Of a stretch of DNA of 15,791 nt, positions 3,126 through 12,331 are shown piece after piece. Numbering within the stretch: position 1 is the stretch's first letter; every line of letters begins with the position of its first letter. This stretch comes from a virus (lineage: Duplodnaviria > Heunggongvirae > Uroviricota > Caudoviricetes): IMG/VR virus record IMGVR_UViG_2737471840_000001, positions 1 to 15,791 of that record; one strand, 5' to 3'. The notes beneath the pieces are model-generated. The model was given only the letters and a program-made list of their open reading frames with translations. It was not told the DNA's origin and ran no database searches. A program made the translations under genes and the position numbers.

Positions 3126-5587
3126 CAGAATCCCCCAACAGTAAGGCGAGGAATAACGGCAAGAACAGACAGCGGCAACGGGTCAAGCTGACGGATTTTT
3201 ACACGTCCGTTTTTGCCCCAGTTACTGTCCAGTTTCACTTCTACTTTTCCGGTAGCGTCATCAACAGGATCATCGTAGAACTCGAATTCACGCTGTGGAT
3301 ATTCGTACCATTTACCGCTGGGCGTAGTCGCCCAGATGCCGCGACTGGCATTCACAACCAGAGTAACTGACGGGATCACCTGTTTTTTGTCCAGCAGCGT
3401 TTCCTGTCCGTTAATGTTGATATCCAGTGTTTCGAATTCGGCAGTTATTGGCAGGCCGATGTGCACTACAGCCCCCGGAGATTCCAGCGTGACGGCACCT
3501 CCGGAAACCACTTTCTGTGGTTCCACGTTCGCATCAGAGAGAATGTTTACGGTCTGCCCTTCAAGATGAGACAGGCCTCCAAATGTCCGGCGCGCCATCT
3601 GCCAGTTCGTGGTGGCCACATTCCTGAGGGATGGCGGGACGTTCCTGTTAGCACGAACCACTACAGCGGTGTTGCTGGTTACAGAAATAATGTCGCAACG
3701 TAATTCTTTTGCGCCAGTATCAGGATCAGTTCCGGTATAAGGGAACTGTAGTTGCGCACCGACATCACTACTGGTGAAGTACGCACCACCAGAAACACTG
3801 ATTGTATATTCCGCACGGTAATCCCATTCACCAGAACCACCAGTGATGGTCATCGTTCTGTCAGACGTATTTCTTCCATCATAGCTAAGGCCAGAATCAA
3901 CAAAGAAAGCATCTTCATCGCTGGTAAATAAACGGCTGGACAGTCTCTCGATGTATCTCACTATTTGCCCGTTAACGGTTCGGTTAACGACGAAATACAC
4001 CGCATCTTCATTGCCTTCGCTGATACTGCACGTGCTTTCATATTTTCCGGTACTGGACTGTGGTGCCCATGCAAAAACCTGTTGATCACGCAAATAGGTC
4101 ATCACCAGTAATTTACCGTCATCACGAATGCAGAAGGCGCTGGAGTAAGGGACAATCGAGAAGCACCAGTCAACAATGCTGTGCTTCTGAAAAAGATGAT
4201 TGGCAAGGATGGTCAGGTCGTTCCCCTGATAGCCATCAACATCGAATGAGTAGGCCAGATCACGGACAACACTGCCTTTCTCCTGGACGAACAGAGCAAT
4301 ATTCGCCACAGCAATTGGTGGGACGTTGCTTGAGCCATTTGATCCCTGAGAGCTGAATGCAAATGATGATGGGGTTAACACTTTGTTCTGGTCACCGGTG
4401 ATGACGTACTCACCTCCGGAAGTCAGTGCCACCAGCGAACCGACATCAATCAGGTGGCGGATCTCATTAACCTGACGCCCGGCATAGGTGTAGATAATTC
4501 TGTCGTCATCCTGCGTAGGATTGCTTTTGCCAAAATCCTTATAATCCCCAGTACGGCTGGCCCAGATAGTCTGAGGGAACGCAGTCGATGCGGCGAAGTA
4601 AAGACGTTGTTGATAATAAACAACAGTGCCAGGATAACCATTAACACTGTTCCAGGCATATTTAGCCCATTTATAGCTGGCATTATCCTCGCCAACGACC
4701 TGCGAAGGGATATAGGAAATCACCTCAGCAGTTGCAGTAGTGCCATTTACAGCAGTTATACGGGCAATGCCAAAACCACTGTGCAGATACTCCCACTCAA
4801 TGCCAGTATCATCATCACCCGATCCACCCCAGCCATCCCATGATGTGCCTTCTGTATGCGAAGGGCGCAAAGTGCCTGTTTTGCCTGCTGTAACGGCGCG
4901 ATAGTAGTTACTGTCTGCACGGCGAATATCGCCAATCGACGTACTCTTACTGGTTTCCCATACCGGCACTGAATCCACTGCTGGCTGTTCCAGATAGAAC
5001 AATTTGCCTACCTGCTCCGCGCCAAAAATAGAGGCGCTTGCCGTTAACGTAATTGTCCCGGTGCTGGCGCTGGCATAAACCGTCACTGACTCGTCAATAT
5101 TGATATCTTCAAATGGCCCGTTCTTCGTTATCACATCAACCAGTTGCCAGTTGTCATGAGCATATCGGCGCAACTCTTTCGGCGGGTATGCCGGGTGAAC
5201 CAGCGTAAGCACGTCGGCGCTTTGCGTGAATTTAATTCGGAACAGATCGGCTTCAGTATATGGCGTGGCAATTTCATAAATAACATTGCTACTGTTCAGC
5301 ACCAACGCACCATCTTTGATAACGCGCATGTACTGGTGTCCGAACTCCAGAGCATAGGTCTGAACCGTCGAGAACTGGAACGGGATCAGGCGGCATTTCC
5401 GATTTGGGTATTTGGCGGCACCGACAAAACGCGTACCAGGTCGATTCTCAACGCCGCCATACTGCCGCACGATAAAGTTATCGCACTTGCGCAATGCCAC
5501 CTGGTACTTCGCCATGTCAATACGCCCGTACAACGACGGTCCAATCTCACCACCGGCAAAGCTGGGTTGGATCCAACTGATAGCCAT
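3125..5587 (-). CDS. Tail tubular protein B-like (T7 gp12-like nozzle protein)
   Basis: 820-aa ORF. Size and N-terminus (MAISWIQPSFAGGEIGPSLYGRID) resemble T7 gp12 as I recall it. Directly follows the gp11-like gene with a TGATG overlap. Confidence 0.6.
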   Translation of the reverse strand: MAISWIQPSFAGGEIGPSLYGRIDMAKYQVALRKCDNFIVRQYGGVENRPGTRFVGAAKYPNRKCRLIPFQFSTVQTYALEFGHQYMRVIKDGALVLNSSNVIYEIATPYTEADLFRIKFTQSADVLTLVHPAYPPKELRRYAHDNWQLVDVITKNGPFEDINIDESVTVYASASTGTITLTASASIFGAEQVGKLFYLEQPAVDSVPVWETSKSTSIGDIRRADSNYYRAVTAGKTGTLRPSHTEGTSWDGWGGSGDDDTGIEWEYLHSGFGIARITAVNGTTATAEVISYIPSQVVGEDNASYKWAKYAWNSVNGYPGTVVYYQQRLYFAASTAFPQTIWASRTGDYKDFGKSNPTQDDDRIIYTYAGRQVNEIRHLIDVGSLVALTSGGEYVITGDQNKVLTPSSFAFSSQGSNGSSNVPPIAVANIALFVQEKGSVVRDLAYSFDVDGYQGNDLTILANHLFQKHSIVDWCFSIVPYSSAFCIRDDGKLLVMTYLRDQQVFAWAPQSSTGKYESTCSISEGNEDAVYFVVNRTVNGQIVRYIERLSSRLFTSDEDAFFVDSGLSYDGRNTSDRTMTITGGSGEWDYRAEYTISVSGGAYFTSSDVGAQLQFPYTGTDPDTGAKELRCDIISVTSNTAVVVRANRNVPPSLRNVATTNWQMARRTFGGLSHLEGQTVNILSDANVEPQKVVSGGAVTLESPGAVVHIGLPITAEFETLDININGQETLLDKKQVIPSVTLVVNASRGIWATTPSGKWYEYPQREFEFYDDPVDDATGKVEVKLDSNWGKNGRVKIRQLDPLPLSVLAVIPRLTVGGF

Positions 5588-9099: not shown

Positions 9100-9396
9100 T
9101 CACTCCTGTTCACTGGCCTCTTTGGCCATCTTCAAATACTGTTCAGGGCAATGCGCCATAACGCGCTGAAACAGTTCCAGCGCCAGATTGCGTTGCCCCT
9201 CATTAAATGCCATTGCCATAGCGTCCATCGGTGAGATAGCGGAAAACACCCGGCCTTTCTCCAGCACAGACCAGACAACGCGACGCCCCTGTTCACTGCT
9301 CATGACAAAGCGAATGTCATCAATTTCACGCTGTGCCATGTCACGTTGCTTACGGGCGTTTTCTTCTTTCAGTTGATCATCTTCGTAATCTGTCAT
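9100..9396 (-). CDS. Hypothetical protein between portal and scaffold
   Basis: 98-aa ORF, ATG at 9396 overlapping the portal stop (ATGA). Acidic, helical-looking composition. Confidence 0.5.
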   Translation of the reverse strand: MTDYEDDQLKEENARKQRDMAQREIDDIRFVMSSEQGRRVVWSVLEKGRVFSAISPMDAMAMAFNEGQRNLALELFQRVMAHCPEQYLKMAKEASEQE

Positions 9397-11072
9397 TGTG
9401 ATTGCCCACCCTGACCACTAACTGCATTCGCCATAGCTGACAAAACACTCGGATCCGAAGTTTTAGCTTCGCTTAGCGTCTTGGCACCCTGTGCCGCCGC
9501 CATCCCCATCGCCATCATTTGTTGTTGCTGTTGTTGCTGTGCCCGTTGCTGGCGAGCCTGCTCAACCTGTTCCTGCGGAACAATGACGGTTGGAGACACT
9601 CCGGACATATCAGCGAATGCATCGATCGCCTGATCAACGTTGAGTTTGTCGAGAGCTTCTGGTTTCGCTTGCGCAAGTTGACCAATGAAGTTAACCGTGG
9701 ACGCCAGACTGGACAGGCCGATAGACTTCTGCGCCTGAGCCATGACAGAAATGTATTCGACCTTCAGGGGCATACCTTCCATCGCGTCAGGCGGTGGCGG
9801 CAGCATGTTTTTACGCACCATCATCGAGAAAGCGCGGTCAATGAGAGGATTAAGACATTCGTCGTTCAGACGCTCCAGAACCGGCCCCAACATCAGAAGT
9901 TTTTCTTCTTTCATTTCGATCACCGCTTCAACAGGCATCGAGCGGGTATTGATGTTCTGCAACATCATGAACAGATCGACAAAGTAGGCGCTGTTAATGA
10001 TTTGGCGGGTGTCCTGAATGTCTGCTACCAGATCTGCTGTACTGGGGTTAACCAGATAAGCAGGCCTGAAACCATCCTGACCAGTAATCTGATCGATATA
10101 CGTGATGTCGCCAGGAAGAAGGGAGGCGCGCTGATTCTTGAGGGAAGTCGGAGCAACCATCGGCGGATTGGTGGCTTTATCAATCAACTGCGACTTGCGC
10201 TTCTGGAGAAGCTGCAGTGCCTTAACAGGTCCAAGCGCCAGCATACCCGGGCATGATGATCCATAAACATCTTCGCCGTTAACTTCCCAGCGCGGAGCCA
10301 TAATTGGAAACTCATCGAATCCGGACTCACGCAACAACTTGTCGTTATCGCCACCAACCTCGTAATAAACCGATTTGAATGGCTTGTTCTTGCTATCCAG
10401 CTTCGATGTATCGCGGTCAATGTTCGGGTAAACCGAATGCATCACTTCAATCCACTTCTCGTAGGTGCCGCTTTCCCACATGCTTTTTACGGATTCGCTG
10501 ACGTTATTTAGCCCGAACTCCTGAACAAGCTGACGAACAGTCATAGAGAACTTGCGAAAACAGGTGTCCACACTGCCACGAGGTGAGTTAGCCAGGTAGT
10601 AACTGCCTATCGGGAATGGCATTGTGCGAATGATGTCCTCGTCATCCTCCAGCACTGCCATTGCACCAGTGCTGTATGTGCCGAGGCTTCCGTATAACTG
10701 CGGCAGAGACTGATAGAGATTCGACTTATTGAACATATCGTTCATGCGGTTCTGCACCGCCTCAAGCCACAACTTAACAGGGCCATAATCCATCATTTCA
10801 GGATCTGGCGTAGCCAGGCGAAACCACGGACGCGCGGGGCTTGTGATGCCTGACATCATGCCGCTGGCGAGAGTGCGCGCCGCCATAGTCCCGGTCGAAT
10901 CAATAATGCGTGTATTGCGTCGATCGTTACGGTTGACCTCTGAAGTCAGAAAGCGGGAACCACGCGGGTTGATGTAATCACTCAACTCGCGCCAGTGCGG
11001 CTCGAACGACTGACGCTCGCTTTCAAGTTGTGCGAACTGTTTGTTCAATCGCTCTTTAGTTGTTTCCGCCAT
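9393..11072 (-). CDS. Portal (head-to-tail connector) protein, T7 gp8-like
   Basis: 559-aa ORF immediately downstream of the terminase region. Gln/Ala/Met-rich C-terminal tail (QQRAQQQQQQQMMAMGMAAAQG...) resembles T7-type connectors as I recall them. ATG at 11072 with GGAG RBS. Confidence 0.75.
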   Translation of the reverse strand: MAETTKERLNKQFAQLESERQSFEPHWRELSDYINPRGSRFLTSEVNRNDRRNTRIIDSTGTMAARTLASGMMSGITSPARPWFRLATPDPEMMDYGPVKLWLEAVQNRMNDMFNKSNLYQSLPQLYGSLGTYSTGAMAVLEDDEDIIRTMPFPIGSYYLANSPRGSVDTCFRKFSMTVRQLVQEFGLNNVSESVKSMWESGTYEKWIEVMHSVYPNIDRDTSKLDSKNKPFKSVYYEVGGDNDKLLRESGFDEFPIMAPRWEVNGEDVYGSSCPGMLALGPVKALQLLQKRKSQLIDKATNPPMVAPTSLKNQRASLLPGDITYIDQITGQDGFRPAYLVNPSTADLVADIQDTRQIINSAYFVDLFMMLQNINTRSMPVEAVIEMKEEKLLMLGPVLERLNDECLNPLIDRAFSMMVRKNMLPPPPDAMEGMPLKVEYISVMAQAQKSIGLSSLASTVNFIGQLAQAKPEALDKLNVDQAIDAFADMSGVSPTVIVPQEQVEQARQQRAQQQQQQQMMAMGMAAAQGAKTLSEAKTSDPSVLSAMANAVSGQGGQSQ

Positions 11073-11293: not shown

Positions 11294-11315
11294 ATCAATG
11301 ACTCCGTACGCAATT

Positions 11316-11388
11316 AAATTATTACCAATTTAACCACATATGATTTATTTATCGTAGATAGTTGACATTTAACGCACAAATTATTACC
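11316..11388. repeat. Two copies of AAATTATTACC in the AT-rich intergenic region, flanking a TTGACA hexamer
   Basis: Exact 11-bp direct repeat at 11316-11326 and 11378-11388. TTGACA at 11363-11368. Inverted repeat TTACC-N5-GGTAA at 11384-11398. Confidence 0.6.
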
Positions 11389-11439
11389 TTTCAGGTAACC
11401 AAAGAGTTCATTCCGGTTACTAACCTGACTGGCTTGTCG

Positions 11440-11721
11440 TTAAATTGAACAGGTGGAGTGAGCTTTTATTTTGAGCAGTACGGCGTATGGCACATGCGCC
11501 GATAGCGGTCTGGATACGTTTAAGGGGCACCCTCCCTTGCTCGGGCAAACGAACCAGGTAGCCGGAATGTGCAAGTCGAGCGGTTTTATTCCGCGCACGG
11601 GGATTCACCATCCCGGCGATTCGGTGTGACGCCTCGGAAGAGACGAGGGTACAACGATGAGAGCATTTATGGAGCCGCGACAAAGTGTGGCGCACTTAAC
11701 AGGCTAAGTGCTCTCAGCGTT
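11440..11721 (+). ncRNA. Candidate structured non-coding RNA or long leader upstream of tRNA-Arg
   Basis: About 280 nt of GC-rich sequence with no credible ORF on either strand. Local hairpins: TTGC-tcgg-GCAA (11537-11548), GCGG-N7-CCGC (11580-11594), GGGAT-N5-ATCCC (11600-11614), CCTCG-N7-CGAGG (11632-11648). Boundaries and strand are not determined. Confidence 0.3.
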
Positions 11722-11798
11722 GTGGCATTAGCTCAGTTGGACAGAGCAACCGCCTTCTAAGCGGTTGGTCGCAGGTTCGAATCCTGCATGCCACGCCA
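11722..11798 (+). tRNA. tRNA-Arg (anticodon UCU), argU-like, with encoded CCA
   Basis: Hand-folded cloverleaf: acceptor GTGGCAT/ATGCCAC, D-arm GCTC-AGTTGGACA-GAGC, anticodon stem ACCGC/GCGGT with loop CTTCTAA, T-arm GCAGG-TTCGAAT-CCTGC, discriminator G, CCA. Body closely resembles enterobacterial argU from memory. Confidence 0.9.
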
Positions 11799-11841
11799 GA
11801 ATCACGCCTAAGGACCGTGATGCCAGAAGTTCCAGGTGCTT

Positions 11842-11884
11842 GGCGGTGATGGTTTCCCTTGAAGGACTATCACCGCCATTTTTA
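11842..11884 (+). terminator. Intrinsic terminator downstream of tRNA-Arg
   Basis: GGCGGTGAT (11842-11850) pairs with ATCACCGCC (11869-11877), internal CCTT/AAGG pairing, followed by a run of five T (11879-11883). Confidence 0.55.
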
Positions 11885-11962
11885 CAGCAGGACGCCATTG
11901 CGATGACTTCATGCTGTAAACCAGTACAGCCACGGAAGGCATAACTCATTGCTTCCAGTTCT

Positions 11963-11986
11963 CCCGGTTCGTCCGGGCATTTTTTT
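11963..11986 (+). terminator. Intrinsic terminator-like hairpin just upstream of the 110-aa ORF RBS
   Basis: CCCGG-TTCGT-CCGGG (11963-11977), then CA and seven T (11980-11986). No U-tract on the opposite strand. Confidence 0.5.
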
Positions 11987-11998
11987 AAGGTGAAAATC

Positions 11999-12331
11999 AT
12001 GAAAGAGAAGACTGCAGCTGAGCGCTATGCCGCAGCTATCAATGCCGCGATGGCGATTGTAAACCTGCGTGAAGAGATTAAAGATCTCCTTGCAATTATC
12101 CATAACAACCTGACATGTACAGAGTTGCTTGGCGGTCAGTACAACGGTGAGGCGGTGAAGGAGGCATTTAAAAATGCCGAGGTAGGAATAATTCCAGCAA
12201 ACTATGTCAAGGCTGAATGTGTGCTCCTAAAGGCACGAGTGAGTCTGCATGAAGATCCTGGTAATCTCGGTCGAACTGCAATGCGTTACGTGATAGACGA
12301 GTCGAATGCCAAACACAATCTACCGAAATAA
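11999..12331 (+). CDS. Orphan hypothetical protein (110 aa), moron-like, opposite to the morphogenesis operon
   Basis: ATG at 11999 with AAGGTG RBS 6 nt upstream (the track start at 11990 is GTG). Product MKEKTAAERYAAAINAAMAIVNLREEIKDLL... has no recognised motif. Uses rare ATA, CTA and CGA codons and looks lower in GC than neighbours. Bracketed by terminators. Confidence 0.6.
   Translation: MKEKTAAERYAAAINAAMAIVNLREEIKDLLAIIHNNLTCTELLGGQYNGEAVKEAFKNAEVGIIPANYVKAECVLLKARVSLHEDPGNLGRTAMRYVIDESNAKHNLPK

Follow-up and report, generated by a model that had tools for sequence, protein, structure and literature searches.

A conserved pseudoknotted RNA domain upstream of a phage tRNA-Arg gene, shared by epsilon15-like, lambdoid and P1-like phages and possibly a leader of early transcripts

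What does a phage keep in some 280 nucleotides (nt) of GC-rich DNA that holds no plausible gene and lies directly in front of a transfer RNA (tRNA) gene? The question is raised by positions 11440-11721 of the IMG/VR virus record IMGVR_UViG_2737471840_000001, whose first 15,791 nt were analysed here and are called the window. An earlier note, made from the letters alone, had described the stretch as carrying several short hairpins and no plausible open reading frame (ORF), had supposed it to be co-transcribed with the tRNA, and had proposed an uncharacterised non-coding RNA (ncRNA), a processed leader or a degenerate tRNA-like element; it suggested looking for compensatory base changes among relatives, and for a known leader or small protein gene. 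We found that the stretch holds a conserved RNA domain, hereafter named domain A, made of helices P1, P2, P4 and P5 and a pseudoknot, with about 50 near-invariant bases. Domain A is almost certainly a genuine new family of structured RNA. Together with the long stem that follows it (module B), it forms at 11479-11723 the 5' part of a plus-strand non-coding transcript, which would continue into tRNA-Arg and a terminator. The parts of domain A are listed below (helix P1 is always so called, as opposed to phage P1).

11479-11651, plus strand: domain A, a conserved pseudoknotted RNA domain of ~173 nt; sole match in the window of covariance model R1 (137.1 bits, E = 1.9e-40)
11481-11501, plus strand: helix P1, hairpin CGGCGUAU-GGCAC-AUGCGCCG, 11481-11488 pairing with 11494-11501
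11509-11558, plus strand: P2, with base UCUGG/CCAGG (11509-13 with 11554-58) and inner CGUU/AACG (11517-20 with 11548-51)
11557-11575, plus strand: single-stranded core GGUAGCCGGAAUGUGCAAG, invariant in 18 phages collected by BLAST
11580-11594, plus strand: P3, a small variable hairpin, GCGG-UUUUAUU-CCGC, from the window sequence and its fold
11600-11626, plus strand: P4 hairpin GGGAU-UCACC-AUCCC (11600-04 with 11610-14), PK1 included in the span
11606-09 with 11623-26, plus strand: pseudoknot PK1, loop CACC with GGUG, from covariation
11632-11648, plus strand: P5 hairpin CCUCG-GAAGAGA-CGAGG with a conserved GGAAGAG loop, from covariation

In alignments of homologues, invariant sequence blocks alternate with helices that change in a compensatory way. 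Covariation was tested for P1, P2, P2b, P4, PK1 and P5 on 44 sequences below 96% identity, with slid controls in which the pairing partners were shifted by 1 to 3 columns. The structure pairs 94.1% of the cells, versus 29-50% in the slid controls, and changes on both sides were found in 14 pairs and 129 cells. None of 500 shuffles attained the observed number of paired cells, number of compensatory cells or covariation score. An all-against-all column scan of 77 distinct sequences returned the same helices and the pseudoknot, as well as a few further pairs which we read as phylogenetic correlation. Conservation of the region together with compensatory changes, at 14 pairs in 44 diverse sequences, agrees with the ncRNA or processed leader put forward in the earlier note.

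The changes are spread over the helices tested. In helix P1, columns 11/23 are A:U in 23 and G:C in 20 of the 44 sequences, and the corresponding pair (columns 7-19) is A:U in 32 and G:C in 43 of the 77. At the base of P2, C:G becomes U:A in 11/44 and G:C becomes A:U in 2/44, and the inner pairs have 6-16 double changes among the same 44. Three pairs of P4 have double changes, in 4, 9 and 21 of the 44 sequences respectively. In PK1, where 100% of the cells are paired, C:G is replaced by A:U in the mEp460 group (4/44 and 11/77). For P5, double changes were seen in four of the five pairs, in 4-10 of the 44 sequences each, and column pairs 175-186 and 176-185 covary among the 77. The interior of P2 is variable; a CU-rich motif in it, CUCCCUUG, is kept as YUCCYU across all variants in the alignments. 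At the position of P3, homologues have a hairpin of other sequence and length, which is not alignable. After the first 18 phages, sequence sets were seeded with an invariant 17-mer, so that the invariance of this core 17-mer in the later sets is partly by construction.

Two near-universal G·U pairs tell the strand: a U·G in helix P1 (columns 12/22, 42/44) and the U·G closing P2 (44/44) would be A·C on the opposite strand, so that the functional strand is the plus strand, that of the tRNA. Folding of 11479-11721 as a single sequence gave z = -2.0, similar on both strands; for this reason covariation was used as evidence instead of thermodynamics. The short hairpins of this GC-rich stretch do exceed chance, as had been suspected by eye, and the proof of it is comparative rather than thermodynamic. 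One ambiguity concerns the core, whose AUGUGC may pair with the loop and 3' strand of helix P1 (GCACAU), possibly as a second pseudoknot or an alternative helix. RNAalifold prefers this long-range pairing over local P1. All its pairs are invariant, and covariation therefore says nothing either way on it; since the local P1 hairpin does covary, we kept the long-range pairing only as a possible second pseudoknot.

These data also bear on the alternative that there is no RNA gene here, the stretch being a small protein gene, a degenerate tRNA, a DNA site (attP, origin or recombination site) or a set of chance hairpins. Open frames do exist (11420-11695, minus strand, 91 aa; 11569-11760, plus strand, 63 aa), some database records annotate a hypothetical protein, and z, at -2 for the region as a whole, is modest and differs little between the strands. 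However, none of these frames is conserved. Homologues are 147-179 nt long, with a length modulo 3 split 12/14/18, their longest open frame is spread over six frames, and variability by codon phase is flat (0.168/0.159/0.178). With lengths not in threes, inconsistent frames and no codon periodicity, a protein gene is excluded, in agreement with the first impression of no plausible ORF. The compensatory changes and strand-specific G·U pairs argue against a mere DNA site or chance hairpins, and so does the presence of the element in the non-integrating phage P1 as well as in integrating phages. Neither ARAGORN nor RF00005 detected a tRNA in 11440-11721, or at the element in 15 loci. Altogether, we consider a non-RNA explanation very improbable. 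The tRNA-like element of the earlier note does not apply to domain A; it has a counterpart only in T-arm-like hairpins, which are confined to the module B inserts of some other phages. In GenBank and RefSeq, "hypothetical protein" coding sequences cross domain A or even the tRNA (mEp460 gp37, phiV10 p04, mEp390 gp36; the spans concerned include L002:2943-3311 and L001:3428-3679, L numbers designating the loci collected), and these are very probably mis-annotations.

Is the RNA a known one? Against the 4227 models of Rfam 15, which include riboswitches, ribozymes, small RNAs (sRNAs), GOLLD, ROOL, C4 and tmRNA, only the tRNA of the window reached the gathering score. Nothing credible was found in 11440-11721 at E<=10, and nothing overlapped the element at E<=1 in 10 homologous loci; the earlier note likewise could name no family by eye. 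The literature searched on prophage ncRNAs, on the P1 ban operon, on structured phage RNAs and on N-less lambdoids yielded no account of the element, a coverage that is incomplete, so that an earlier description may exist. An exact-sequence search of the literature returned no paper, and a preprint on the Pas sRNA and one on P1vir RNA-seq do not cover the element. The fold thus matches no described RNA family, and the records inspected do not annotate it.

The same results bear on a catalytic or ligand-sensing RNA, namely a self-cleaving ribozyme freeing itself from its cargo, or an aptamer or riboswitch. A size of ~170 nt, a pseudoknot and invariant junction nucleotides are typical of such RNAs, and many small ribozymes are phage-associated. 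However, no ribozyme or riboswitch model of Rfam matched at E<=10, no conserved candidate cleavage junction was identified, and P5 is followed by no expression platform (alternative terminator or sequestered ribosome-binding site), the downstream elements varying by locus. We regard this explanation as improbable.

Domain A is widespread, its carriers being temperate phages of Enterobacteriaceae that are not related to each other. By BLAST, 11480-11721 is ~80% identical to non-coding DNA of phages unrelated to Uetakeviruses: the lambdoid phages mEp460, cdtI, 2H10, Ayreon and mEp390, Stx2c phages, Stx2a_WGPS2 and 1720a-02, phages P1, P7, D6 and SJ46, and Klebsiella and Enterobacter phages. Like P7, D6 and SJ46, RCS47 and many P1-like plasmids carry it. 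The copy of phage P1 (L004:2501-2669, record 71023-71191) extends from helix P1 through P5, without module B. The exact core 17-mer is present in more than 120 IMG/VR contigs, and 102 distinct versions of domain A were counted among the loci collected. A distant BLAST search found domain A in 1840 of 5426 complete Escherichia coli genomes (34%), in 1917 places on chromosomes and 554 on plasmids; none of the 40 E. coli matches listed has an annotated feature under it. When a genome collection was scanned with a gapped 17-base pattern, most of the 120 loci returned were due to chance, because the pattern is too unspecific, and R1 singled out the true ones; R1 found copies in Kosakonia, Phytobacter, Kluyvera, Citrobacter, Escherichia whittamii, Superficieibacter and Enterobacter genomes. 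A tandem arrangement was seen only in the viral contig L037, where two full copies on the minus strand (3997-4154 and 4804-4959; 121 and 153 bits) are ~800 nt apart.

Position is what suggests a role: domain A always has the orientation of an early unit and is close to the 5' end of it. Annotated lambdoids without exception have it downstream of a cI-like repressor gene, on the same strand. Among 105 IMG/VR loci, 56 have a cI-type repressor gene whose end is 95-400 nt upstream, again on the same strand. These repressors belong to three unrelated families with a helix-turn-helix (HTH) and a Peptidase_S24 domain, or are short HTH repressors. Between cI and domain A are found the repressor terminator, then a promoter with operator-like repeats, and domain A starts roughly 5-25 nt past the -10 element (L017, L019, L026, L047, L127). 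Immediately before domain A, L057 and L049 have 40-47 nt that share 85-88% identity with the OL/PL region that separates cI from putL in HK022, so that domain A occupies the putL slot. No N gene is present in these lambdoids between cI and the early-left genes of yfdP/Q/R type, and terminators separate domain A from the next protein genes. Such phages were noted in a 2025 paper to lack N, and a put-like mechanism was guessed at (PMC12315714). In phage P1, domain A fills an unannotated gap between trnI (tRNA-Ile2) and ban, inside the C1-repressed ban operon, and in SopranoGao it is located after the lysis genes. The repressor-gene, promoter and ban-operon placements indicate that the element of lambdoids, phage P1 and Uetakeviruses is part of an early transcript under repressor control, and lies at the 5' end of this transcript or close to it. 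Whereas a position just downstream of an early promoter is found directly in the lambdoid relatives, for the window we infer it from the repressor-site annotation of epsilon15.

The window comes from an epsilon15/phiV10-like podovirus (Uetakevirus), as a genome or prophage, and its 11300-11900 part has 98-99% identity with phiV10, TL-2011b and O157 typing phages 9 and 10. The element sits there in a divergent intergenic region, flanked on one side by the head-gene operon (portal, 9393-11072, and a small ORF, both on the minus strand) and on the other by a rightward unit that stops before the convergent terminase genes. GC content is 0.55-0.61 in the stretch versus 0.30-0.36 in the promoter-like region preceding it, and the stretch abuts tRNA-Arg, both being on the plus strand. 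The signals around domain A are as follows.

11362-11399, plus strand: candidate early promoter, called by eye; TTGACA at 11362-11367, 17-nt spacer, weak -10 TACCTT at 11385-11390
11383-11399, plus strand: palindrome ATTACCTTTCAGGTAAC overlapping the candidate promoter, read from the sequence
11402-11467, plus strand: hairpin B', upstream of domain A (AAGAGUUCAUU ... AGUGAGCUUUU), similar to stems of the module-B type; fold z = -1.6, weak
11445-11472, plus strand: second by-eye promoter candidate, inside B'; TTGAAC at 11445-11450, 16 nt, TATTTT at 11467-11472, from the sequence
11651-11723, plus strand: module B, long stem ACAACG-AU-GAGAGCAUU ... AGUGCUCUC-AG-CGUUGU with a ~35-nt insert; fold z = -4.9
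11722-11798, plus strand: tRNA-Arg (anticodon UCU), the cargo in this phage; ARAGORN, and Rfam RF00005 at 73.3 bits
11841-11885, plus strand: intrinsic terminator T1, 15-bp stem and U tract; terminator scan, fold z = -3.0

The promoter at 11362-11399 has to be taken as a weak, by-eye call, because a strict sigma-70 scan of the window found none there. The counterpart of the palindrome is annotated in epsilon15 as a lysogeny repressor binding site, adjoining an integration host factor (IHF) site, and that of B' as "RNaseIII, mRNA processing". The first part of the stretch, 11440-11478, is the 3' half of B', and a motif of B', GTCGTTAAAT, was seen again within module-B-like units of other phages. 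The terminator scan found none between the element and the tRNA, the first being T1, which is probably the 3' end of a primary transcript of ~400-480 nt. With both on the same strand and no terminator in between, the layout points to co-transcription with the tRNA, as had been supposed. A tie to the tRNA itself did not hold: 87 of 137 related loci have no nearby tRNA.

We propose that domain A is a promoter-proximal leader acting in cis on early transcription, in the manner of put, a role deduced from position alone and to which we give a probability of roughly 0.4. The transcript would start at the repressor-controlled early promoter, and domain A would then act in cis on the early transcription complex or on the transcript, by anti-pausing, antitermination or anti-Rho activity. 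RNA polymerase (RNAP) would be kept going through a long untranslated, structured and terminator-rich stretch, and the outcome would be expression of the RNA cargo and early genes behind domain A. The long stems B' and B may serve as processing stalks, freeing domain A, the inserts and the tRNA.

The put RNA binds the zinc-binding domain of the beta' subunit of RNAP and suppresses pausing and termination in cis. Domain A resembles put of HK022 and HK639 in being a promoter-proximal, presumably protein-independent structured RNA that opens the PL transcript of N-less lambdoids, and both precede terminators and early genes. The differences are several. Whereas put is ~70 nt long, with two stem-loops and a triplex (PMC9378689), domain A has ~150-180 nt, five helices and a pseudoknot, and a put fold was rejected on size and helix count. 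HK022 has both putL and putR; of domain A there is usually a single copy. Domain A is moreover not confined to lambdoids, being found in P1, Uetakevirus and Lastavirus; it has RNA cargo, unlike put, and its antitermination activity is a proposal only. Resemblances to put picked out by eye, ACGGCG...CAUGCGUCG in phage P1 and the GGAAGAG loop of P5 as compared with HK639 put, were within chance by shuffling. The comparison with a known leader and the examination for a small protein gene thus ended alike, with no put homology and no coding signature.

Leaders with boxA (lambda nut, rrn, boxA of CRISPR arrays) also open long untranslated or early operons. The rrn parallel goes further, as its leader, processing stems around RNAs, embedded tRNAs and terminators match the succession of domain A, module B, tRNA and terminator. 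A canonical boxA follows domain A in three loci, ~20-40 nt after P5 (TGCUCUUUAACAA / TGCTCTTTAACAA in L099, GCTCTTTAA in L043 and L056), and within the following 800 nt of L099 we saw no N-like ORF. Module B has a boxA-like 3' strand (GUGCUCUUUCC; GTGCTCTTTCCGTTGTGG), the boxA-like part being followed by a GU-rich, boxC-like string. In the window, the only boxA-like string is UGCUCUCAG in the 11703-11715 strand, which is off the boxA consensus, (Y)GCUCUU(U)A, and predicted to be paired inside the module B stem. Domain A differs from these leaders in having no boxA/boxB features of its own.

Several observations speak against a put-like leader. Even with filters off, R1 gave no match at the annotated putL-like RNA of HK639, and it found nothing in HK022. 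The best local alignment scores to put, 22 and 19, were reached by 92/300 and 112/300 shuffles. There is usually one copy per phage, and none was found in the PR operon of the single prophage locus searched that spans PR (L141). The Uetakevirus of the window and SopranoGao have no long operon behind domain A; in the window, the unit leads into one small gene and then a convergent terminase gene. In phage P1, domain A is followed by ban without a terminator in between. The loci in which a canonical boxA comes after domain A suggest another source of antitermination in these cases. Moreover, 87 of 124 loci look like a discrete RNA gene of ~400 nt closed by a terminator, a layout that fits a stand-alone ncRNA equally well. 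Finally, epsilon15 (L005:2542-2631) retains only the first ~60 nt of domain A, and since this is a viable phage, the locus is dispensable there. The deletion lies between two copies of UUCCCUUGAUGCU / TTCCCTTGATGCT (in the P2 loop and the terminator loop) and removed most of domain A, module B and tRNA-Arg.

What follows domain A is organised in modules. In most related loci, P5 is directly followed by the stem ACAAC-n-RAGAGCAYU ... AGUGCUCUY-n-GUUGU, which encloses unrelated inserts of about 10-170 nt, for a module length of 46-207 nt; some inserts carry canonical T-arm hairpins. The closing stem of module B pairs 79.9% of the cells versus 35-50% when slid, with 25 compensatory cells (for example GUAGCUCACU/AGUGAGCUAC), the first figure being lowered by a one-base register shift in one subgroup. 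In the window, its 3' strand reaches into the first two bases of tRNA-Arg. The stem ends exactly at the start of tRNA-Arg (31 of 137 related loci) or of another stem-closed module. Farther 3' are more stem-closed modules, RprA-like sRNAs (22 loci) and RyhB-like sRNAs (23 loci), then terminators; a terminator-like site was found within 800 nt after domain A in 87 of the 124 related loci, at a median of 227 nt. With stem-closed modules, sRNAs and terminators in series, the locus is a modular RNA-cassette array headed by domain A. As for processing, the ~20-bp imperfect duplex of modules B and B' is conserved and covarying in module B, and its cleavage by RNase III is a prediction only.

This organisation brings in an explanation of its own, in which domain A would be a 5' platform protecting against 5'-end-dependent decay or guiding processing, the B-type stems (RNase III-like) and RNase P at the tRNA organising maturation of the cargo as in rRNA operon leaders. 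Domain A would indeed become 5'-terminal everywhere, after the promoter in lambdoids, after trnI in phage P1 and after B' in Uetakeviruses. Conserved ~20-bp stems around unrelated inserts of about 10-170 nt, a tRNA that begins exactly at the end of the module B stem, and the RNase III site annotated at B' in epsilon15 are all consistent with it. However, a simple hairpin suffices for 5' protection, which leaves the pseudoknot and the many invariant single-stranded bases unexplained, and domain A also occurs without any cargo, directly before a boxA/terminator-like sequence or ban. We therefore hold a platform to be unlikely.

The mobility of the cassette and the nature of its cargo lead to another possibility, itself doubtful and nearly as likely as the cis-acting leader: domain A may be a stable trans-acting early ncRNA, cut from the primary transcript and binding a host or phage factor. 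It would serve host takeover, act as an anti-defence decoy, or regulate like an sRNA through the conserved CU-rich P2 loop, and would be one gene of a phage "ncRNA island" that also holds tRNAs and sRNA mimics. The pseudoknot and about 50 unpaired bases that do not vary suggest a surface for specific binding, and the YUCCYU of the P2 loop resembles an anti-Shine-Dalgarno seed. No protein gene consistently adjoins domain A, which usually comes with a promoter of its own and with a terminator ~230 nt past it. The cassette moves among unrelated phages and genome positions (for example behind the lysis genes of SopranoGao), its adjacent cargo includes RprA-like and RyhB-like sRNAs, and it is dispensable in epsilon15, as an accessory moron would be. 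Against a trans-acting RNA, strict 5' placement in repressor-controlled early operons, in the putL slot, would be needless for action in trans; moreover, no target or partner can be named, and the CU-rich motif is predicted to be paired in long variants, the window included.

Other phage RNAs were compared with domain A. GOLLD and ROOL are phage-borne structured ncRNAs of unknown function, often adjoining or interleaved with tRNA genes. Like them, domain A is phage-borne and highly structured, with modular variable regions; unlike them (500-800 nt, mainly in Firmicutes and related groups, forming multimeric cages), it has ~170 nt, is enterobacterial and matches no Rfam model. The species 1 and 2 RNAs of T4 and the C4 RNA of P1/P7, which is processed by RNase P, are small structured phage RNAs co-transcribed with tRNAs or processed like them. 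Phage P1 carries both C4 and domain A, and neither C4 nor the T4 RNAs match domain A in sequence or structure. In mEp460, C4 (RF01695) lies at L002 706-793, away from the element.

Conservation at such a level in a pseudoknotted RNA is rarely found without function, and the carriers include the well-studied P1, phiV10, mEp460 and cdtI as well as some Stx2a- and Stx2c-converting phages. If domain A controls early transcription, it would explain how early-left operons are expressed in N-less lambdoids, a question left open in the literature, it would be only the second class of protein-free antitermination RNA known, and it could matter for how Stx prophages are induced. More broadly, and tentatively, domain A may be a second, structurally unrelated class of RNA that reprograms E. 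coli RNAP (or blocks Rho or termination) without a phage protein, driving the expression of early genes and RNA cargo in P1, in many lambdoid prophages and in some of the Stx2 phages. Otherwise it may be a decoy RNA, or a ribozyme of a new kind, with a target in the host; in both cases a third of E. coli genomes would carry a functional RNA class that is unannotated. A cassette locus with swappable RNAs in conserved stems (tRNA-Arg, tRNA-like inserts, RprA- and RyhB-like sRNAs) would be a delivery route of regulatory RNAs to hosts. Covariance model R1 enables annotation of the element in thousands of genomes.

Some minor observations concern the cargo. In L002, L009, L013, L015, L016 and L017, module B is followed by a second stem-closed module (GTGGTGAATGCGCAGGCTGATGCGC ... 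GCCGGAGATCAGCACCGGYCACCAC-AAC), which fills exactly the position of tRNA-Arg and has a variable middle; it was seen in 24 loci, with a variant form in 7, and its loops GCUGAU and AUCAGC are complementary. An RprA-like sRNA lies 3' of the element in L018 (1631-1750, phage BUCT708), in L019 (mEp390) and in 20 other loci; in L018 it scores 50.2 bits with RF00034, versus a gathering score of 70, and has the seed GCTGTGTGTAGTCTT and a terminator. In the window itself, a candidate RyhB-like sRNA is located at 11931-11986 on the plus strand, with an intrinsic terminator at 11963-11986. Its 13-nt CATTGCTTCCAGT (11947-11959) matches the RyhB core (RF00057; with 17.5 bits and E = 2, it falls far short of the gathering score), and the RyhB-like seed was found in 23 of 137 related loci, window included. 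Judging from such similarities, phage-borne mimics of host sRNAs appear to be a common cargo of the locus. Lastly, terminator T2 (11963-12003 region) adjoins the ribosome-binding site and ATG (12000) of ORF 12000-12331, which belongs to the Gp49 family according to the RefSeq annotation of an identical prophage. Since no promoter is evident between T1 and T2, this ORF seems to rely on terminator read-through.

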